A stretch of 25,778 bases of DNA from a virus (Duplodnaviria; Heunggongvirae; Uroviricota; Caudoviricetes): the IMG/VR virus record IMGVR_UViG_2718218136_000006, one strand, 5' to 3'. Position 1 is the stretch's first letter. Each line of letters opens with the position of its first letter. Below the pieces are notes generated by a model. That model was not told the DNA's origin, did no database searches, and saw only the letters and a program-made list of their open reading frames with translations. Both the position numbers and the translations under genes were made by a program. Positions 6,194-25,778 of this stretch are shown piece by piece.

Positions 6194-6792
6194 TACGCAA
6201 ACTCCAGTAGTTGTGCGGCCACATTTTCAATTTCCTCCTGAGAGGAGAATTTACGGAACAGAATCCAGTTCCACAGCACATTCAGTACAGATTTATAAAC
6301 CTGCTGAAACTCGACTTCGTCCATATTCGCAAACGCGATGGATTTCGCCCGACGCCCACGGCTACCATCAGGATAAAAATGCTCTGTGTAAAATCCGGCC
6401 TGAATGGTTACCCACTCGCGGAAAGCCTCAAACGACTTTAGCAATGCCGTATCCCGGGTTCTGCGTGTCGCAACGGTATTCAGATATTGCTCTGCGGCAC
6501 CACTCAGGGCTGGAGTATGTTCCCGACCTACTGATTCGCACAGGTAATCAACGAAGCCTGATACCAGTTCTCGTTCTCGAGGCGTGATCGCCCCACCGAT
6601 CGGAGTCCAGTAATCGAATCCCAGTTGCAGGAGTTTGAAAAAACGCTTGTGGAATGCATAGTTACGCACACGCTTAAAGTCTGCGTGTATCCACTCGCCT
6701 ATTTTGATTTGATGCAGAAAATCGCAACTCTCCGGCGTCGCCGGGAGAAGTAAACCAGAAGAAGTTTGTTTGACCAGTTGTATATGCGCCAT
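6193..6792 (-). CDS. hypothetical nin-region protein, 199 aa
   Basis: ATG 6790-6792 with GGAG upstream; long ORF, co-oriented and coupled to the downstream gene. Family not recognised with confidence. Confidence 0.55.
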   Translation of the reverse strand: MAHIQLVKQTSSGLLLPATPESCDFLHQIKIGEWIHADFKRVRNYAFHKRFFKLLQLGFDYWTPIGGAITPRERELVSGFVDYLCESVGREHTPALSGAAEQYLNTVATRRTRDTALLKSFEAFREWVTIQAGFYTEHFYPDGSRGRRAKSIAFANMDEVEFQQVYKSVLNVLWNWILFRKFSSQEEIENVAAQLLEFA

Positions 6793-6863
6793 CGTAGTTC
6801 TCCGCTGGCGCAGTAGAATGGGTGTTCAGTCCGTTGTGCAGTATACCAGAATTAATACCAATA

Positions 6864-7076
6864 CTAACAGGATGCTCTGACTCGCAATTCATCCAGCAGT
6901 TTATCATTTCCCATAATGTCACTTAACCTCATCGGTAAAAAAATTGCCTTTCGCCCATTACGATACATCATTGATTTTTGGTTTTCAGGGAAGTAATCCA
7001 TTTCGACTATAACTGACAGGTCATCACGACGTATGACTGCGTATTTGCTACTAAATAGTTTCTTTATTTTTTCCAC
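6864..7076 (-). CDS. hypothetical small protein (about 70 aa from GTG 7074-7076; ORF track extends to 7115)
   Basis: GGAGG 4 nt upstream of an internal GTG; no ATG start available; left edge of the AT-rich island. Confidence 0.3.
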   Translation of the reverse strand: MEKIKKLFSSKYAVIRRDDLSVIVEMDYFPENQKSMMYRNGRKAIFLPMRLSDIMGNDKLLDELRVRASC

Positions 7077-7963
7077 GATGCCTCCAAGTTTATAAGTACA
7101 AGAGGTTATATCCACATAGAGACAAAAATATTAATCTTAAAAATATTTATTTCACGCCGTATATTTGTTTGTTTTATGCGCAGGCACAATGACTTTTATT
7201 TATTGTTATGCATATAATCAAATAAGTGATTGTTTTTTGCTCTTCAGATTCAGCAGGCAAAATGCATAAGGGCTGAAAGTTCTCGCATATAATACCTAAT
7301 TTACTATCACTATATTCTAAGCACTTACCAGGTGATTAGGAACGGAACCCAGTACCGTGCGAATTTTAATTATGTGCTGGGACCAAACGGTCTGAAATGT
7401 CTTCATTGGTGACGATGATTACTCTTACTTTTTGATTTTAATATTCCGGCAATAATTTTAATAAAAATCTGTTTTAACTCTGCATTTTGCTGATTCTCCG
7501 AAGAAACTATCCATCTCTACGAGGAGATCAAATGTCGTTTCAAATCAGTATGATGAGTATAAAAATCATGCCATAAATAGAAAACTAATTCGTCTGTATA
7601 GCAGTAATATTTCTGAAAATTAGTAGGATACTGTGGTAAAGAAATTCATTTCCAAGTAATTGGTAAACGCATTTGATTTGATTTTTTGTATGGGCTGTAC
7701 TGGCTAAATAACATCCGATACTTGCCAGCACTAGCGATTGCTATTGATGAGAACAATAGTGGCATCCGGCAAAGCATTTTGTAGGGGGGTATCAAGCGGT
7801 GCTAACGCATTGCGGTAAAAATTCTGTCACACTTGGCGAGCAGGCATAGAGATGATCTCATTGAATTGGTTGCAATCACAAAACACTATGCCTGCCTTTT
7901 CTATTCGCCCATTGCTGGGGAGTCCACAGCACTACTGCAGCTTTTTAGTACGATGAACAGCTA

Positions 7964-8087
7964 TTAAGTAATTTCAGAGGTATCTATCACTTTCTCAGGA
8001 GTTGTAGATAACAATTCTTTCATACGCTGATCTTCGGGAGCACGAGAAGACAGGTGTTCTAAAAACTCACGCCATTGACGCTTTGCA
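7964..8087 (-). pseudogene. orphaned 3' end (37 codons plus stop) of the GHKL ATPase gene, cut off by IS10
   Basis: Reading across the 9-bp duplication, the ATPase frame continues without a stop for 37 codons (QWREFLEHLSSRAPEDQRMKELLSTTPEKVIDTSEIT) to TAA at 7964-7966. Confidence 0.7.
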
Positions 8088-9416
8088 CTGAGAGATCCCC
8101 TCATAATTTCCCCAAAGCGTAACCATGTGTGAATAAATTTTGAGCTAGTAGGGTTGCAGCCACGAGTAAGTCTTCCCTTGTTATTGTGTAGCCAGAATGC
8201 CGCAAAACTTCCATGCCTAAGCGAACTGTTGAGAGTACGTTTCGATTTCTGACTGTGTTAGCCTGGAAGTGCTTGTCCCAACCTTGTTTCTGAGCATGAA
8301 CGCCCGCAAGCCAACATGTTAGTTGAAGCATCAGGGCGATTAGCAGCATGATATCAAAACGCTCTGAGCTGCTCGTTCGGCTATGGCGTAGGCCTAGTCC
8401 GTAGGCAGGACTTTTCAAGTCTCGGAAGGTTTCTTCAATCTGCATTCGCTTCGAATAGATATTAACAAGTTGTTTGGGTGTTCGAATTTCAACAGGTAAG
8501 TTAGTTGCTAGAACCCATGGCTCCTTTGCCGACGCTGAGTAGATTTTAGGTGACGGGTGGTGACAATGAGTCCGTGTCGAGCGCTGATTTTTTCGGCCTT
8601 TAGAGCGAGATTTATACAATAGAATTTGGCATGAGATTGGATTGCTTTTAGTCAGCCTCTTATAGCCTAAAGTCTTTGAGTGACTAGATGACATATCATG
8701 TAAGTTGCTGATAGGTTTCCAGTTTTCCGCTCCTAGGTCTGCATATTGTACTTTTCCTCTTACTCGACTTAACCAGTACCAACCCAGCTTCTCAACGGAT
8801 TTATACCATGGCACTTTAAAGCCAGCATCACTGACAATGAGCGGTGTGGTGTTACTCGGTAGAATGCTCGCAAGGTCGGCTAGAAATTGGTCATGAGCTT
8901 TCTTTGAACATTGCTCTGAAAGCGGGAACGCTTTCTCATAAAGAGTAACAGAACGACCGTGTAGTGCGACTGAAGCTCGCAATACCATAAGTCGTTTTTG
9001 CTCACGAATATCAGACCAGTCAACAAGTACAATGGGCATCGTATTGCCCGAACAGATAAAGCTAGCATGCCAACGGTATACAGCGAGTCGCTCTTTGTGG
9101 AGGTGACGATTACCTAACAATCGGTCGATTCGTTTGATGTTATGTTTTGTTCTCGCTTTGGTTGGCAGGTTACGGCCAAGTTCGGTAAGAGTGAGAGTTT
9201 TACAGTCAAGTAATGCGTGGCAAGCCAACGTTAAGCTGTTGAGTCGTTTTAAGTGTAATTCGGGGCAGAATTGGTAAAGAGAGTCGTGTAAAATATCGAG
9301 TTCGCACATCTTGTTGTCTGATTATTGATTTTTCGCGAAACCATTTGATCATATGACAAGATGTGTATCTACCTTAACTTAATGATTTTGATAAAAATCA
9401 TTAGGGGATTCATCAG
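8088..9416 (-). mobile_element. IS10 copy 1 (1329 bp), flanked by 9-bp direct duplication CGCTTTGCA (8079-8087 and 9417-9425)
   Basis: Ends CTGAGAGATCCCCTCATAATTTCCCC (inside end) and ...TCATTAGGGGATTCATCAG (outside end) recalled as IS10 termini; exact 9-bp flanking repeat read from sequence. Confidence 0.95.
8101..9309 (-). CDS. IS10 transposase, 402 aa
   Basis: ORF track; protein MCELDILHDSLYQFCPELHLKRLNSL... recalled as the IS10/Tn10 transposase. Confidence 0.95.
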   Translation of the reverse strand: MCELDILHDSLYQFCPELHLKRLNSLTLACHALLDCKTLTLTELGRNLPTKARTKHNIKRIDRLLGNRHLHKERLAVYRWHASFICSGNTMPIVLVDWSDIREQKRLMVLRASVALHGRSVTLYEKAFPLSEQCSKKAHDQFLADLASILPSNTTPLIVSDAGFKVPWYKSVEKLGWYWLSRVRGKVQYADLGAENWKPISNLHDMSSSHSKTLGYKRLTKSNPISCQILLYKSRSKGRKNQRSTRTHCHHPSPKIYSASAKEPWVLATNLPVEIRTPKQLVNIYSKRMQIEETFRDLKSPAYGLGLRHSRTSSSERFDIMLLIALMLQLTCWLAGVHAQKQGWDKHFQANTVRNRNVLSTVRLGMEVLRHSGYTITREDLLVAATLLAQNLFTHGYALGKL

Positions 9417-11284
9417 CGCTTTGCATCAGACAGAAGGTCATCCCAAGTTAATGTATACATTTCTTGTTCTCTCAATGTTTTCAGTTTCATATTTAACGTT
9501 GCATTTCTCTTTAAAAAATCATCAGCAACTAGATAACCGGAAACTCGCTTGAATGGACTTCCTGTTGCAGAGTCTAAATAAACTCTGAAAGTATTAACAT
9601 ACTCCTCAAAGCGATTGATGTGATCTTTATCTATTTTCAGCCCTGGCCTCATGAATTCAAGTACAAGCAAATGTTCACCACTTGAAAGAACTAAGTCAAC
9701 CCTTCCTTTAAAGCTTGGATCGTGTTCAATGTCTGATTCTTTTGCTGCTTCTCTAGCGATATGCTGGACATTTTTCTCAATAGCATAAGTCTCCCATTTT
9801 GGAGCTATCAGCCAAGGATTCTTCGCAATATAGTCTCGAACAGCATTTTCTAATTCTTTAGTGCGTATTCTAGTCTCAAGACCACTTATAGTATCAAGCT
9901 TAGCTTTAACTGATTCTGCTGTGTGTAAAGCCTGAATTGTATTTGCTTCGATCAATATCTCAAGCAATTTCGTTTCATCCATATCAGGAACGGAAGCAAC
10001 GCTTCTTATAAGCTCTTTTAGACGCCCTCCCTCCCATGCAGTGAGGATAGAGTTGCCTATATGCCTAAATTGCTCTGCACCGATTTGTTGGATTGATGCA
10101 ATTCGTTTCAAAGCCATTATAACCGTTTTTTTCTCTACACCTAGTTTATCTAGCCTACTTCTGAAATCATCAATTTTACTTTCAATCAGTTTGGTTTTTT
10201 CATCTGCCCGCCGATCTTTCCAGATTTTTAATAATTCGCGAACACGTTTCTGTCCCCACTCTTCTAATTTGGCAAGGTGGTGACTACTCCAATTCAATCT
10301 TTGTCGTTCAGTAGAAATCACATCATCATTAAACTCATCCAAATAATCAGCAATTACAGCCCCTGTCATATATTCAGGACCATTTTGACTTGGCAACCCT
10401 CCAGTCAAGTTAAACATAAACGGCCTTTGTGCTAATTTTTTGTGAGCGTAAATCGAGATACCTTGCAACTCATCATCCTTGATTGTTTCTTTTAAGAAAA
10501 ACACTCTCCATTTTATCTCATAACCATCAACGATTTCTTTTCCATACCCCAAACTGTCAATCTCCGTAAGAGAATCAGGTTTTTCATCTACAGTATAATC
10601 TTTTGGAAAACTATATTCTGCAGTGGCAAGAAAATTTTCGACTGGCATGGGGGTATTATTAATACGAACTAAAAATTCATCGCCGCCAGAATTGATCGCA
10701 AACCTTCTCGCCATAGATGTAGCAAAAGAAGACTCATTTAACAATCTATTTATTTTCAATGACTTAAGTGTTACTGTTGTTCCATGATTTTCTTTTTCTA
10801 ATTCTGAAGGGCCTGTGCGGAAGGTCACATCAATAGCCATGCTTTCAGTTTTAACGTAGTCATCTGACGATCTAATCTTATTTATATCCAAAGTAAAACT
10901 AGTTTTTTCACCTGTTTCTTGGCTAGTAGTACAAATTTCTATAATCTCAGCAATACCAAAACCAGCAAACTTTCCGATACCTTTTCTTCCCATTAAGTCT
11001 CGATTGAATAATTTCGACTTCGCTACAGGATTATCTTTCCTTTTATCAAAACCAACCGTAAGAAATTTCTTTTGACATTCTTCAAATGTCATTCCAATAC
11101 CATTGTCTTTTATAACAATAGTTCTATTTTCATGCGTGGGTAGTGTAATATTAACTTCGGTTGCATCCGCGTCCCAAGCATTAGAAACCATTTCAGCTAT
11201 TGCTGCTGTTGGACTTTGATACATTTGAATACCTAAATGATCAATTATCCTACCATGAAAATTTAGAAATAGTTTATTATCCAT
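9413..11284 (-). CDS. MORC/MutL-like GHKL ATPase (HATPase_c-type N-terminus) with large C-terminal region; truncated to 623 aa by IS10, original about 660 aa
   Basis: Bergerat-fold motifs read directly: EMVSNAWDA (N box), IKDNGIGM (G1), GRKGIGKFAGFG (G2). ATG 11282-11284 overlaps MTase stop by 8 nt. Stop codon 9413-9415 lies inside the IS10 end. Confidence 0.75.
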   Translation of the reverse strand: MDNKLFLNFHGRIIDHLGIQMYQSPTAAIAEMVSNAWDADATEVNITLPTHENRTIVIKDNGIGMTFEECQKKFLTVGFDKRKDNPVAKSKLFNRDLMGRKGIGKFAGFGIAEIIEICTTSQETGEKTSFTLDINKIRSSDDYVKTESMAIDVTFRTGPSELEKENHGTTVTLKSLKINRLLNESSFATSMARRFAINSGGDEFLVRINNTPMPVENFLATAEYSFPKDYTVDEKPDSLTEIDSLGYGKEIVDGYEIKWRVFFLKETIKDDELQGISIYAHKKLAQRPFMFNLTGGLPSQNGPEYMTGAVIADYLDEFNDDVISTERQRLNWSSHHLAKLEEWGQKRVRELLKIWKDRRADEKTKLIESKIDDFRSRLDKLGVEKKTVIMALKRIASIQQIGAEQFRHIGNSILTAWEGGRLKELIRSVASVPDMDETKLLEILIEANTIQALHTAESVKAKLDTISGLETRIRTKELENAVRDYIAKNPWLIAPKWETYAIEKNVQHIAREAAKESDIEHDPSFKGRVDLVLSSGEHLLVLEFMRPGLKIDKDHINRFEEYVNTFRVYLDSATGSPFKRVSGYLVADDFLKRNATLNMKLKTLREQEMYTLTWDDLLSDAKR

Positions 11285-12325
11285 AATCCGCCTCGTTTTT
11301 AGTTATATGTTCTTTGATAAGTTCAGCATGATGCTTAATGAATTCAGGGGGCAATGCATTCCCTATCATCAAAGCAGCCTTGTCTTTACCAAATTGAATA
11401 GGAAAATAGTAATCACTCGGAAAAGTTTGTAATAATGCAGCCTCTCGAAGAGTTATTGCTCTATCTTGTTCAGGATGTAAAAAACGACCTTTTGAAGGAT
11501 TAGTACATCCACTCGTAATAGTTGGAGCTACATCATCCCACCTCATACGACCGTAAACATCGCGAAAACCATTTGGATATCGTTTATGACATGGCAGCCA
11601 ATACTCGTAAGGAAGTTGAGAGCGGCTTCCCCCATCCTTAGGAATAAGACTTATAATTTTTTTAACCTTCTCAGTTCTTCTTTCTAATATATTGTGCAGC
11701 GGATCATTGCTATTTTCAGGTCGAGCCAAATGGCCTATTGCATCGCGCACAGTTATTAAATTACTATTTTTTTGAGCACGAGTAAGCTCTCCGTATCGCG
11801 AAGCAAGTAGTACCATGCGCTTACGTCTTTGTGGCACACCAAATTTACTAGCATCTTCAATTAAAACTGAATTATCATCGATATGATAACCCAATTTCTT
11901 AAGCTCCGAAGTAAACATGTTTATTCGTTCGTCAAATGCCAAAGCTGGTACATTTTCAACCATTACAACTTTTGGAAAAAAGACTTTAACAAAATCTAAA
12001 AAATTAAAAATAAGTTCATTTCTCTCATCAAAGACAGCTACTGTTTTATTTTTTGTTCTTAACGAAGAAAATCCTTGACATGGTGGACAACCTGCCAACA
12101 AATCCAGTTCACCTTGCTGAATTTTTAATTGTTTCATTAATTCATCTGGTGATATATTTTTATATCCCCATTTATTAAGTTAACATCCGGATGGTTGATT
12201 CTATAGGTTTCAGATACAATAGCTTCTTTTTCGATTGCTGATATGACATCAAAGCCAGCCATTTTTAGACCAACTGTCAAACCACCAGCGCCACAAAAAA
12301 GATCAATTGCTTTCATTTTATGCAT
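11277..12325 (-). pseudogene. Dcm-family DNA (cytosine-5) methyltransferase, split by a -1 frameshift in an A5 run (T5 on plus strand at 12157-12161)
   Basis: 62-aa ORF carries motif I (DLFCGAGG) and GDIK; 286-aa ORF carries motif IV (PCQGFS), ENV, and C-terminal GNALPP. Adding one A restores a continuous GDIKNISPDEL...ELDLLAGCPPCQ reading. Confidence 0.8.
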
Positions 12326-12361
12326 TCCATTCCATCATGTATACTATGAATCTAATCGAGA

Positions 12362-12390
12362 ATCATATGAAATTGATAGGCTTTTTACAA
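12362..12390 (-). promoter_or_regulatory. candidate sigma70 promoter for the MTase-ATPase operon
   Basis: On minus strand: TTGTAA (12385-12390), 17-bp spacer, TATGAT (12362-12367), about 40 bp upstream of the MTase start. Confidence 0.35.
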
Positions 12391-12718
12391 TCTTTATCAT
12401 CTATTTTTATTGTCTTATGTAATTTTCTTGGTTATTGGTGGAATGTAATCTCATCTGATATCCTATGTCCTAATAGATAGCAATTCTGTATGAGCTTTTA
12501 TTGCCCTCATCAGACGCTTCCTTTATGAAGTTGTTCCGAGCAATGCAGCATCGCATTTATCACTTCTTTTATGTGGCTTATGTGTCACGGCGTTGTTGCC
12601 ATCAAGGCCAGCGAACATTCCGTGCCTGTCAAACGCCGTGCAAAGCTCGTTAAACGCCCACGTCCGAACTTCGGCAAGGAAGGCATTGGCGCGGTCAACT
12701 CCTGGTAGCCAATCCTGC

Positions 12719-13141
12719 TCACTGCGCCGCCCCCTGAAAATGCCCCTGATAGAATGCCAGCACACGCTGCATAACTTCGCTCTTCCGGCACTCGCGACAG
12801 ATTATGTTCATACGCCTGTCATAGCGGCGTATTTCTCCGTCTGGTAATGACCAGATAAGGTCAGGATCAACCACAACCGTTTTTTTCACCTTTGCCCTGG
12901 ATAGTTTTTTGCGGGCGTTTTTCCAGTCCTTACGAGCCTGTTCAGAGGGAAATAACCCATAGCCAGAGTTGTATACATCGCCACTGGCAACCAACTCTCT
13001 GGCAAGAATGCTCATCAGATATCTTGTCGCACCTGTCTTGGCCTCCAGTTGCCTTAACGTCTCGCGCCCACTCTGGCGTACCAGCTCAACAACCTGCTCC
13101 TTAATTTTTTCACGCTCTTCCTGTGTAAAAACTTTTGCCAT
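12719..13141 (-). CDS. hypothetical protein, about 140 aa
   Basis: ATG 13139-13141 behind GGAGG; ORF track start at 13156 is a TTG. C-terminal end overlaps other open frames (see findings). Confidence 0.45.
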   Translation of the reverse strand: MAKVFTQEEREKIKEQVVELVRQSGRETLRQLEAKTGATRYLMSILARELVASGDVYNSGYGLFPSEQARKDWKNARKKLSRAKVKKTVVVDPDLIWSLPDGEIRRYDRRMNIICRECRKSEVMQRVLAFYQGHFQGAAQ

Positions 13142-13156
13142 AAGCGCCTCCGGCAA

Positions 13157-16271: not shown

Positions 16272-16610
16272 ATGGTTCATGAAGATAAAGCGCGTAAAGA
16301 GTTCGCCAGTAGGCTTGCGCTAGCCTGTGAAAACGCTGGTTATGAACAACATGGAAGGCAGGCAGAAATTGCCCGTCGAATGAAATTAACACCAAAAGCG
16401 GTTAGCAAATGGTTTAATGGTGAAACAATTCCTCGCCGAGAGAAATTAAGGGAATTAGCAACACTCATTGGAACAACACCAACCTATCTTTTGGGAGAGG
16501 ATACAGAAGAAAGTGGACAGATACGTTTCTATCAGGAGTTAAATCCAAGACAAAAATCATCATTGACCTTCTGGACGAGCTCCCTGACAGTGAGACAGAT
16601 GAACTTTTAA
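16272..16610 (+). CDS. racR: RacR prophage repressor (XRE-type HTH); 112 aa as read, possibly frameshifted near 16552-16556 with a displaced C-terminal frame to 16689
   Basis: ORF track; HTH GRQAEIARRMKLTPKAVSKWFNG; see findings for the alternative frame. Confidence 0.75.
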   Translation: MVHEDKARKEFASRLALACENAGYEQHGRQAEIARRMKLTPKAVSKWFNGETIPRREKLRELATLIGTTPTYLLGEDTEESGQIRFYQELNPRQKSSLTFWTSSLTVRQMNF

Positions 16611-22456: not shown

Positions 22457-22512
22457 TTCAGCCTGGCGGTGTAATGCACCGCCAACTTGAAATATTTTTT
22501 ATGAGAAAAATT

Positions 22513-22707
22513 ATGAGATATGACAATGTTAAACCATGTCCATTTTGTGGTTGTCCATCAGTAACGGTGAAAGTCATTTCAGGATATTACCGAGCGAAGT
22601 GTAACGGATGCGAATCCCGAACCGGTTATGGTGGAAGTGAAAGAGAAGCACTCGAAAGATGGAATAAACGAACCACTGGAAATAATAACGGAGGTGTTCA
22701 TGTATAA
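22513..22707 (+). CDS. ralR: RalR (Lar) restriction-alleviation protein, 64 aa
   Basis: ORF track 22474..22707 trimmed to ATG 22513 (MRYDNVKPCPFCGC...); Cys-rich zinc-ribbon-like pattern. Confidence 0.8.
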   Translation: MRYDNVKPCPFCGCPSVTVKVISGYYRAKCNGCESRTGYGGSEREALERWNKRTTGNNNGGVHV

Positions 22708-23204: not shown

Positions 23205-23640
23205 ATGTCTAAATTACCAACAGGTGTCGAGATTAGAGGTAGATACATTCGCATCTGGTTCATGTTTCGAGGAAAACGATGTCGGGAAACATTAAAAGGC
23301 TGGGAGATTACAAACAGTAATATTAAAAAGGCCGGAAATTTAAGAGCGCTGATAGTTCATGAAATAAACTCCGGTGAATTTGAGTATTTAAGACGTTTTC
23401 CCCAGTCCAGCACTGGGGCAAAAATGGTGACAACGAGAGTCATAAAAACGTTCGGAGAGCTTTGTGATATCTGGACAAAAATTAAAGAGACAGAGTTAAC
23501 AACAAACACAATGAAGAAAACGAAATCACAATTAAAAACACTCAGAATAATAATTTGTGAAAGTACCCTGATATCACATATTCGTTATAGCGATATCTTA
23601 AACTACCGGAATGAACTGCTGCATGGAGAAACGCTTTACC
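23205..23640 (+). pseudogene. intR: intR integrase, 5' fragment (145 codons), interrupted by IS10
   Basis: ATG 23205; frame runs into IS10 at 23641 and terminates after 11 IS-encoded codons; arm-binding-type N-terminus. Confidence 0.9.
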
Positions 23641-24969
23641 CTGAGAGATCCCCTCATAATTTCCCCAAAGCGTAACCATGTGTGAATAAATTTTGAGCTA
23701 GTAGGGTTGCAGCCACGAGTAAGTCTTCCCTTGTTATTGTGTAGCCAGAATGCCGCAAAACTTCCATGCCTAAGCGAACTGTTGAGAGTACGTTTCGATT
23801 TCTGACTGTGTTAGCCTGGAAGTGCTTGTCCCAACCTTGTTTCTGAGCATGAACGCCCGCAAGCCAACATGTTAGTTGAAGCATCAGGGCGATTAGCAGC
23901 ATGATATCAAAACGCTCTGAGCTGCTCGTTCGGCTATGGCGTAGGCCTAGTCCGTAGGCAGGACTTTTCAAGTCTCGGAAGGTTTCTTCAATCTGCATTC
24001 GCTTCGAATAGATATTAACAAGTTGTTTGGGTGTTCGAATTTCAACAGGTAAGTTAGTTGCTAGAACCCATGGCTCCTTTGCCGACGCTGAGTAGATTTT
24101 AGGTGACGGGTGGTGACAATGAGTCCGTGTCGAGCGCTGATTTTTTCGGCCTTTAGAGCGAGATTTATACAATAGAATTTGGCATGAGATTGGATTGCTT
24201 TTAGTCAGCCTCTTATAGCCTAAAGTCTTTGAGTGACTAGATGACATATCATGTAAGTTGCTGATAGGTTTCCAGTTTTCCGCTCCTAGGTCTGCATATT
24301 GTACTTTTCCTCTTACTCGACTTAACCAGTACCAACCCAGCTTCTCAACGGATTTATACCATGGCACTTTAAAGCCAGCATCACTGACAATGAGCGGTGT
24401 GGTGTTACTCGGTAGAATGCTCGCAAGGTCGGCTAGAAATTGGTCATGAGCTTTCTTTGAACATTGCTCTGAAAGCGGGAACGCTTTCTCATAAAGAGTA
24501 ACAGAACGACCGTGTAGTGCGACTGAAGCTCGCAATACCATAAGTCGTTTTTGCTCACGAATATCAGACCAGTCAACAAGTACAATGGGCATCGTATTGC
24601 CCGAACAGATAAAGCTAGCATGCCAACGGTATACAGCGAGTCGCTCTTTGTGGAGGTGACGATTACCTAACAATCGGTCGATTCGTTTGATGTTATGTTT
24701 TGTTCTCGCTTTGGTTGGCAGGTTACGGCCAAGTTCGGTAAGAGTGAGAGTTTTACAGTCAAGTAATGCGTGGCAAGCCAACGTTAAGCTGTTGAGTCGT
24801 TTTAAGTGTAATTCGGGGCAGAATTGGTAAAGAGAGTCGTGTAAAATATCGAGTTCGCACATCTTGTTGTCTGATTATTGATTTTTCGCGAAACCATTTG
24901 ATCATATGACAAGATGTGTATCTACCTTAACTTAATGATTTTGATAAAAATCATTAGGGGATTCATCAG
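23641..24969 (-). mobile_element. IS10 copy 2 (1329 bp), flanked by 9-bp direct duplication CGCTTTACC (23632-23640 and 24970-24978)
   Basis: Same termini as copy 1; 9-bp flanking repeat read from sequence; same orientation as copy 1. Confidence 0.95.
23654..24862 (-). CDS. IS10 transposase, 402 aa
   Basis: ORF track; protein identical to the copy-1 transposase. Confidence 0.95.
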   Translation of the reverse strand: MCELDILHDSLYQFCPELHLKRLNSLTLACHALLDCKTLTLTELGRNLPTKARTKHNIKRIDRLLGNRHLHKERLAVYRWHASFICSGNTMPIVLVDWSDIREQKRLMVLRASVALHGRSVTLYEKAFPLSEQCSKKAHDQFLADLASILPSNTTPLIVSDAGFKVPWYKSVEKLGWYWLSRVRGKVQYADLGAENWKPISNLHDMSSSHSKTLGYKRLTKSNPISCQILLYKSRSKGRKNQRSTRTHCHHPSPKIYSASAKEPWVLATNLPVEIRTPKQLVNIYSKRMQIEETFRDLKSPAYGLGLRHSRTSSSERFDIMLLIALMLQLTCWLAGVHAQKQGWDKHFQANTVRNRNVLSTVRLGMEVLRHSGYTITREDLLVAATLLAQNLFTHGYALGKL

Positions 24970-25778
24970 CGCTTTACCTGGATAATCCAAGATCCAACAA
25001 AAAAGGAAGAACCGTGCGCACAGTTGATAACTATATCGCCCTGCTCTGTTCGCTGTTACGTTTTGCGTATCAGTCGGGATTTATATCAACCAAACCATTT
25101 GAAGGAGTAAAAAAATTACAGCGAAACAGAATAAAGCCTGATCCGTTATCTAAAACAGAATTCAATGCATTAATGGAAAGTGAAAAAGGACAGAGCCAGA
25201 ACATGTGGAAATTTGCAGTTTACTCAGGACTTCGTCACGGGGAACTGGCAGCTCTGGCGTGGGAGGATGTGGATCTCGAAAAGGGAATAGTGAATGTCAG
25301 AAGAAACCTGACGATACTTGATATGTTCGGTCCCCCAAAAACAAATGCCGGGATCCGGACAGTAACACTACTGCAGCCTGCTCTTGAAGCACTGAAGGAG
25401 CAATACAAACTGACCGGGCATCATCGCAAAAGCGAAATCACCTTTTATCATCGGGAGTACGGCAGAACCGAAAAGCAAAAACTGCATTTTGTTTTCATGC
25501 CCAGGGTGTGTAACGGAAAACAAAAACCTTATTACTCGGTAAGCAGTTTGGGGGCAAGGTGGAATGCAGCAGTAAAACGTGCTGGTATTCGCCGCCGTAA
25601 TCCGTACCATACGCGGCATACTTTTGCCTGCTGGCTGTTGACGGCAGGAGCGAACCCGGCATTTATAGCCAGCCAAATGGGGCATGAAACTGCGCAGATG
25701 GTGTATGAAATTTACGGTATGTGGATTGATGACATGAACGACGAACAGATAGCCATGTTGAATGCGCGGTTATCATAG
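24970..25778 (+). pseudogene. intR: intR integrase, 3' fragment with tyrosine-recombinase catalytic region
   Basis: Frame resumes in register after the duplicated 9 bp (CTG at 24978-24980); catalytic-region motifs HTRHTFACWLL and ...EIYGMW; stop at 25776-25778. Confidence 0.9.

Follow-up and report, generated by a model that had tools for sequence, protein, structure and literature searches.

The stretch of DNA analysed here (the window; 25,778 nucleotides, IMG/VR record IMGVR_UViG_2718218136_000006) is a Rac-like lambdoid prophage of Escherichia coli. Within an AT-rich island between its nin region and its replication genes lies a pair of genes, one for a C5 cytosine DNA methyltransferase (M) and one for a GHKL ATPase with a predicted C-terminal nuclease domain (R). 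Both genes are damaged in the window, R by a copy of the insertion sequence (IS) IS10 and M by a frameshift that may be a sequencing error. Their intact forms were read from CH4797 (locus L001), a strain without either of the two IS10 copies of the window, which matches the window over 20.4 kb with no substitutions and three one-base deletions. The parts of this cassette are as follows.

7964–8087, minus strand: detached 3' end of R, its last 37 codons and the stop codon, assigned from the intact gene of CH4797; 8079–8087 is one copy of the target duplication.
8088–9416, minus strand: IS10, 1,329 bp, named ISVsa5 by PGAP and delimited by its terminal repeats and target duplication; transposase at 8101–9309 (minus strand), RNA-OUT at 9302–9371 (plus strand).
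9417–11284, minus strand: 5' part of R, codons 1–622, with the GHKL ATPase, a middle region and most of the predicted PD-(D/E)xK nuclease domain, truncated by IS10 such that the window encodes residues 1–623.
11277–12317, minus strand: M, the C5 cytosine DNA methyltransferase (PF00145), 346 residues when intact, overlapping the start of R by 8 nucleotides.
12318–12398, minus strand: cassette-borne region upstream of M with a promoter-like site (TTGTAA, 17-nucleotide spacer, TATGAT; 12390 to 12362), a consensus match only.

M is recognised by its matches to PF00145 (E 1e-55), TIGR00675 (E 3e-45) and the PADLOC model MTase_II (E 4.5e-81), and the catalytic motifs FCGAGG, PPCQ, ENV, QRRKR and GNALPP are all found in the intact protein of CH4797. 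The intact R gene spans 1,983 nucleotides and encodes 660 residues, of which 25–169, the MutL/MORC-like GHKL ATPase, match PF13589 (E 1e-23). The GHKL superfamily is marked by the ATP-binding motifs of the Bergerat fold (ExxxN, DxGxG and a glycine-rich loop); in an alignment of 25 homologues of 48–91% identity, these (E, N, D-G-G and GRKGIGKFAGFG) are invariant, and the best solved relatives are the N-terminal domains of MutL. The best family matches of R as a whole are models of restriction enzymes, namely the PADLOC type II model REase_II (E 1e-52) and NF050001, the BbrUII/HgiDII family (E 2.5e-89), in which residues 13–634 align with positions 9–647 of the 659-position profile. The first-pass annotation, made from the sequence alone, had described a methyltransferase-ATPase operon at this site; the pairing of M and R stands, but the 'ATPase' reads as a restriction-type nuclease and the cassette is damaged in this copy.

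The C-terminal domain of R found no more than an E value of 0.76 among PDB chains and only sub-threshold matches in Pfam, and its fold was therefore assigned from a predicted structure. The last 198 residues were modelled with AlphaFold2 (predicted local distance difference test, pLDDT, 82.3; predicted template modelling score, pTM, 0.75), and a Foldseek search with this model placed NucS/EndoMS at the top (probability 0.99), with a best E value of 2.1e-3 and no hit reaching E 0.001. On this model, the domain has a predicted PD-(D/E)xK nuclease fold, and it is also structurally similar to the nuclease domain of Shedu. The invariant positions of the C-terminal region include an E, D-x12-E-F-M-R-P, D-x-x-H-x-x-R-x-x-x-Y and a terminal W-x-x-F...R-x-P-x-D-x-R.

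The IS10 copy at 8088–9416 has every hallmark of the element: the length, the terminal repeats, a 9-bp target duplication (CGCTTTGCA, at 8079–8087 and 9417–9425), an IS4-family DDE transposase (NF033591, E 4e-121) and RNA-OUT (Rfam, 98.8 bits). The window and CH4797 are collinear across the insertion site, and this insertion in R was seen in no complete E. coli genome of the collection. The first-pass annotation had drawn the limits of IS10 differently and placed it beside the ATPase gene; in fact, it interrupts that gene, and 7964–8087 is the 3' end of R. The tail thereby lost from the protein, QWREFLEHLSSRAPEDQRMKELLSTTPEKVIDTSEIT, includes W, F, R, P, D and R at six positions that do not vary within the family, and with it go one and a half helices of the nuclease domain that were modelled with confidence. 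R is therefore probably inactive in this window.

In M, a one-base deletion at 12157 (T6 to T5) leaves open reading frames (ORFs) of 62 and 286 residues. The shorter (12137–12325) matches positions 1–52 of PF00145 and is probably the small upstream ORF that the first-pass annotation mentioned without coordinates; it is the N-terminus of the methylase, cut off by the frameshift. The deletion may be a sequencing error, because the window departs from CH4797 elsewhere only by further one-base deletions in homopolymers, and with the present sequence error and real mutation look the same. All three deletions (4314, G5 to G4; 12157; 16552, A6 to A5) look like errors of sequencing or assembly rather than mutations; that at 16552 shortens the RacR-like repressor from 139 to 112 residues. 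Phase variation at the T6 run was considered and rejected: the run is too short for it, and the remaining two deletions likewise fall in homopolymers, which points to sequencing error.

A second IS10 (23641–24969; 9-bp duplication CGCTTTACC) splits the integrase gene of the prophage (region 23205–25778), separating the catalytic domain from the N-terminal Arm-binding and SAM-like domains, and the prophage is probably locked in place. The two IS10 copies have the same orientation and are 15.5 kb apart.

The pairing of M with R extends well beyond this prophage. Relatives of R were sought in one genome per species, which gave 489 stretches from a very wide range of bacteria and from some archaea, and linkage was counted in the best 80 of these, taking a methylase within 4 kb by tblastn. 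A C5 methylase was found near R at 64 of the 80 loci in this way and at one more (L037) by Pfam, giving 65/80. Among the 64, 33 lie immediately upstream, 15 immediately downstream and 16 nearby, and 48 are directly adjacent to R on the same strand. Vsr, the usual companion of 5-methylcytosine (m5C) systems, is present at 37 of the 80 loci. Immediate upstream placement of M with the same 8-nucleotide overlap is seen in four distant contexts: in E. coli; in a Klebsiella lambdoid prophage, after a gene like lambda P; in a P2-like prophage of Serratia fonticola, between gpA and the portal gene; and in Paraburkholderia, where the pair adjoins an integrase and is followed by Vsr. Further copies of the cassette are found in an isolated phage of Yersinia, P37, and on a plasmid of Pantoea. 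In each of the three other loci measured, it lies about 6–13 percentage points of GC content (GC) below its flanks (Klebsiella, 38–39.5% against 49%; Serratia, 40.5–41% against 51–54%; Paraburkholderia, 53–54.5% against 60–62%). The Klebsiella cassette is homologous at the DNA level (81%), starting at 12398.

The locus thus offers what is expected of a type II (m5C) restriction-modification system: a C5 methylase with its catalytic motifs, an adjacent gene with a predicted nuclease domain, and linkage of the two across hosts. Taken together, the linkage pattern, the profile matches to restriction enzymes and the predicted nuclease fold support a cassette for methylation-guarded restriction. 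Several observations weigh against this assignment. R scores 300.6 bits on NF050001, for which the curated equivalog cut-off is 550, and is therefore a relative of BbrUII/HgiDII rather than an equivalog. The lysine of the nuclease ExK motif is not conserved, the family having an invariant D-x12-E-F-M-R in its place. In PGAP, R is named no more closely than 'ATP-binding protein', and its PHROGs family is listed among those of unknown function. At as many as 15 of the 80 loci (six of them examined by Pfam), no C5 methylase was seen within 4 kb, and in the window itself the frameshift of M is not separable from a sequencing error. We infer the restriction-modification role, and with it any recognition sequence, cleavage, methylation and phage resistance, from sequence, predicted fold and gene context.

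The most serious competitor, which we nevertheless regard as unlikely, is that M and R do not form a classical restriction-modification pair at all. R would then be a stand-alone effector of the Shedu kind (type I-D, GHKL-nuclease) triggered by some feature of infecting DNA, and M an orphan or regulatory methylase that only travels with it. VcSduA, which has the same architecture, does defend on its own (PMC12137116), lone paraMORC3 genes were noted by Iyer et al. (PMC2292703), and the loci without a linked methylase are as this explanation would have it. Also in its favour, four of 17 C-terminal segments from the R family reach Pfam SduA_C (PF14082), weakly and below threshold (best E 0.044). 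On the other side, the full R protein has no match to that model at E up to 0.01, and no PADLOC Shedu model is matched. The profiles that R does match best are those of restriction enzymes. Against a lone effector also stand the overlap of the two genes, kept in four distant contexts, the methylase found near R at most loci, and the frequency of Vsr beside it. Some of the R family may nonetheless need no linked methylase, a point already made for paraMORC3 (PMC2292703), and the methylase-free homologues, some of which adjoin repair genes or other restriction genes, hint at other uses of the family. The neighbours of three distant homologues without a methylase nearby (L029, L033 and L042) are a fusion of a UvrD-type helicase with a PD-(D/E)xK nuclease, an HhH-GPD glycosylase, an HNH protein or an AspBHI-like modification-dependent enzyme.

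Downstream of the cassette lies a stretch, 7116–7963, in which the first-pass annotation had rightly reported no ORF of 60 residues or more; the longest that we found has 49. Such an ORF is also missing from 598 of 1000 shuffles of the stretch, so its lack is within chance for this composition, and we dismissed it as a signal on its own. The unusual feature, for a phage genome, is the size of the non-coding gap. The stretch divides as follows.

7116–7260, no strand: conserved backbone spacer of 145 bp, 27.6% GC, upstream of a small ORF and, in relatives, following the hokD terminator (assigned by homology).
7261–7347, no strand: 87-bp junction between the backbone and an IS remnant, found only in the 18 genomes that carry the island.
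7348–7929, minus strand: decayed 5' half of an IS10-like (IS4-family) insertion sequence, 582 bp, assigned by blastn, tblastn and DNA alignment.
7840–7895, plus strand: relic of an RNA-OUT-like antisense hairpin with the stem GCAGGCATAG / CTATGCCTGC, assigned by its fold and by a position like that of RNA-OUT in IS10-type elements.
7930–7963, minus strand: 34-nucleotide tail between the R stop codon and the end of the IS remnant, assigned by coordinates.

The greater part of the stretch (582 of 848 bp) is accordingly the decayed stump of an old insertion sequence. A distant DNA search with blastn gave 68–77% identity between 7370–7946 and annotated IS4-family transposase genes, and the transposase of an element in strain UTI89 aligned by tblastn to the minus strand, 7847–7424, across three frames with in-frame stops. 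Read from 7929 down to 7348, the remnant corresponds to positions 1–623 of the 1,312-bp UTI89 element, with several internal deletions. It retains a terminal inverted repeat at 7929 (CTGTGGACTCCCCAGCAATGGGCG, against CTGAGGAATCCCCAGTAATGGGCG in UTI89) and transposase codons 1 to about 171, which are interrupted by stops, frameshifts and deletions. The transposase of the UTI89 element, a match to NF033591 (IS4 family), is 36% identical to that of IS10. The element itself (L002, 2297–3608, between narI and tyrT) is the closest full-length relative found for the remnant and is seemingly intact, with 17-bp imperfect terminal repeats and an RNA-OUT-like hairpin; PGAP annotates its transposase only. 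The remnant shares with the UTI89 element the terminal repeat and the N-terminus of the transposase. It differs in comprising only 47% of an element, in its stops, frameshifts and deletions, and in a DNA identity of only about 68–77% to any copy found, intact or partial. An IS4-family element has both terminal repeats and an intact transposase; 7348–7929 has one end and a broken frame and is a remnant, not an element.

The earlier suggestion that the ORF-free part could hold decayed genes is thus borne out, whereas a small RNA or regulatory element found no backing. We give very little credence to the proposal that 7116–7963 encodes a functional product of this kind, such as an IS-derived antisense RNA or control elements for the cassette. 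The hairpin at 7840–7895 does survive and is followed by a T-rich run, but an 11-nucleotide deletion has shortened it in comparison with the intact element of UTI89, and its fold has only a marginal advantage over shuffles (z = -2.17; the UTI89 element gives -2.98 and IS10 RNA-OUT -3.82). Elsewhere in the stretch, folding did not surpass that of shuffles: 7116–7260 showed no structure (z = +0.84 against shuffles), nor did either strand of 7261–7347 exceed its shuffles. The Rfam RNA-OUT model found no match at the relic even at E up to 10. A scan of 6500–12900 with Rfam and a second of 7100–7970 with laxer filters returned the RNA-OUT of IS10 and noise only; within 7100–7970, no E value fell below 0.27 and all scores were far under the gathering thresholds. 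Promoters and terminators in 6700–8100 were predicted in numbers at or below the shuffle expectation. The stretch is also downstream of the operon, not upstream, and the Klebsiella, Serratia and Paraburkholderia cassettes do without it. Its complete (100%) conservation among 11 carriers could be taken in favour of the proposal but reflects recent common descent, because the whole block differs by only 2–7 changes per kb.

The 87-bp junction could not be traced to the IS10-like element or to IS10: its alignment score was 23, where shuffles gave a mean of 18.7 and a maximum of 30. In the relatives examined, a hokD/sok toxin-antitoxin locus opens the slot (L004, 4159–4573; L008 and L009, at 7160–7315; Rfam sok 111.7 bits), and the homology breakpoint falls just after their hokD terminator. 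Rfam scans for a hok/sok remnant found sok in the O157:H7 counterpart but not in the window. That the truncated inner end of the IS stump faces the site of the hokD terminator suggests that an IS-associated deletion formed the left junction, where relatives carry hokD/sok.

The limits of the insert follow from comparison with related prophages, and the features at its two edges are these.

6864–7076, minus strand: left backbone, a small conserved phage ORF of 70 residues with a GTG start after a GGAGG site (phrog_1813, E 9e-32; a hypothetical protein of PGAP in CH4797).
12399–12522, no strand: AT-rich spacer forming the right edge of the island; backbone homology is back at about 12527.
12523–13156, minus strand: right-hand backbone, a small ORF (phrog_27745) and a Ren-like DUF977 gene (phrog_142, Ren-like exclusion protein, E 1e-46).

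In the O157:H7 prophage (L004), homology on the left continues up to window position 7260, and on the right it returns from 12701. In other prophages, conservation (73% homology) resumes at about 12527 with a small ORF downstream of DUF977, which puts the right edge at about 12522. On the left, homology of the backbone with O157:H7 and at least 150 other prophages stops at 7254–7260; among the non-carrier matches listed, the alignments end at 7254 or 7260. By this homology, the foreign segment is 7261–12522. The first-pass annotation had set the island at 6860–12520; the right edge holds, but 6860 is a boundary of composition, and prophage comparison places the insertion boundary at 7260/7261. 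The interval 6860–7260 is AT-rich yet conserved, and its ORF at 6864–7076 is part of the prophage backbone, outside the insert: it accompanies the gene for NinB in 1,330 E. coli genomes, and the block that holds it is 88% identical to the O157:H7 prophage. The island itself is present in 18 of 5,426 complete E. coli genomes, with both junctions common to 18/18, against the 1,330 that have the left backbone (NinB, the small ORF and the 145-bp spacer). Three relatives (L004, L008 and L009) fill the slot with hokD/sok, a 105-nucleotide ORF, DUF551 genes or other small genes; the segment is therefore not ordinary core sequence in relatives, an outcome that would have spoken against acquisition.

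CH4797 is annotated, in order, with trkG, lysis genes, two tRNAs, DUF1133/DUF1364/DUF1367, a small hypothetical gene, the 'ATP-binding protein' and the 'DNA cytosine methyltransferase', followed by DUF977, DUF1627, ydaV, ydaT, repressors, sieB, kilR and recET. In PHROGs, DUF1367 corresponds to NinB and DUF977 to a Ren-like exclusion protein, which places the island in the classical ren–ninB interval. The same prophage has, at 22474–22707, a gene for Lar restriction alleviation (PF14354).

The island stands out by composition, as had been claimed. Sliding 500-bp windows have a GC fraction of 0.33–0.39 at 6750–8000 and 0.31–0.39 at 9250–12500, with 0.46–0.51 on both sides. Excluding IS10, the island (3,924 bp) has 36.5% GC and the rest of the window 45.8%; every 3.9-kb window outside the island lies between 42.8% and 50.8%, above the island. 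By segment, R has 36.5% GC, M 36.2%, the IS remnant 38.1% and the region upstream of M (12318–12522) 31.2%, while IS10 has 43.9%, with 49.0% in the nin flank and 50.4% in the replication flank. Codon usage agrees: GC at third codon positions (GC3) is 0.23–0.275 in M and R against 0.47–0.60 in neighbouring phage genes. A second AT-rich block, trkG (582–2057; 37.8% GC, GC3 0.32), means that the island is not the only compositionally foreign segment.

The first-pass proposal of horizontal acquisition is well supported by these findings and by the recurrence of the same cassette in unrelated phages and hosts: deviant composition, presence or absence at a fixed position of the backbone and alternative cargo in relatives are together what marks a horizontally acquired cargo (moron). 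We set aside almost entirely the idea that the AT-rich segment is ordinary prophage core in which composition varies as in any mosaic, since, although lambdoid prophages are mosaic, 6860–7260 is AT-rich backbone and trkG is equally AT-rich, it is contradicted by the 18 carriers against 1,330 genomes with adjacent backbone, by the other genes in the slot of relatives and by the cassette in unrelated phage types. A second carrier lineage (L010) differs from the window by 2–7 changes per kb in the block 6861–13156 and, outside it, by 43–83 per kb in the nin region and 32 per kb in the immunity region, a contrast that indicates mosaic recombination among Rac-like prophages. The pattern fits one acquisition followed by spread through homologous recombination between prophages.

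We therefore favour, with good though not complete confidence, the view that 7261–12522 is an accessory (moron) insert in the ren-ninB slot that carries a mobile two-gene restriction-modification cassette, with the restriction activity, ATP dependence, defence role and order of events all proposed as parts of this reading. The methylase would mark host and prophage DNA at its target sites, and the ATPase-nuclease, probably as an ATP-driven dimeric clamp, would cut incoming DNA that lacks the methyl mark. Marking and cutting together would shield the lysogen from other phages and stabilise the cassette. An old IS10-like element, with only a dead 5' half remaining, is found downstream of R, and an IS-associated deletion would have shaped the left junction. 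In this window, the cassette is damaged, by a recent IS10 that removes the last 37 residues of R and by the frameshift in M, itself perhaps a sequencing error.

If this is correct, an annotation gap is closed, in that the 'ATP-binding protein' reads as a restriction-type GHKL-nuclease coupled to a C5 methylase and carried as cargo by several temperate phage types. The R family is widespread: it occurs in at least 489 species-level genomes, some of them archaeal, with lambdoid and P2-like phages among its carriers. The intact copy is relevant to the GHKL-containing restriction enzymes, a poorly characterised class, and the window is a small worked example of cargo decay, with an old IS stump at the junction, a fresh IS10 in the nuclease gene and a second IS10 in the integrase.

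Among known systems, R is closest to R.HgiDII and R.BbrUII, which it resembles in its near full-length profile match, its N-terminal GHKL domain and its DNA methylase partner. Its score below the cut-off makes it a distant relative, probably with another recognition sequence, and M.BbrUII is an N6-adenine methylase (PMC5829577) whereas the partner here is a C5 methylase. R.HgiDII is a type II enzyme in which the C-terminal domain was unassigned in 2008 (Orlowski and Bujnicki, PMC2441816); the equivalent domain here models as a PD-(D/E)xK fold. The paraMORC3 proteins of Iyer, Abhiman and Aravind (2008, PMC2292703), which R resembles, combine a GHKL and S5 module with a C-terminal RE-fold nuclease, in laterally mobile restriction-modification operons with cytosine methylases (Dcm) and Vsr that are common in proteobacteria. 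Their published motifs are E-D-ExK, of which R has the conserved E, D and E, but its ExK lysine site reads E-F-M-R.

In VcSduA of Vibrio cholerae (Shedu type I-D), both ATPase and nuclease residues are required for phage defence (PMC12137116). R resembles it in GHKL-nuclease architecture but is not matched by the Shedu sequence models, and VcSduA acts as a single gene whereas R, in most genomes, shows translational coupling to a C5 methylase. We file R as a relative of the BbrUII/HgiDII enzymes that would work like both these enzymes and Shedu. It is a tentative extension, to which we assign rather low confidence, that the GHKL-nuclease is an ATP-driven Shedu-like clamp nuclease that owes its discrimination of self from non-self to the coupled C5 methylase and so forms a bridge, in evolution and in mechanism, between Shedu type I-D and restriction-modification. 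As for the island as a whole, it shares with the moron slots of lambdoid and P2-like phages that hold defence genes the insertion between replication genes or ren and ninB, the AT-richness, a promoter-like site and the presence/absence polymorphism. We see no essential difference, and on these grounds the island is a further example of predicted defence cargo, one more type, in a known variable slot of temperate phages.

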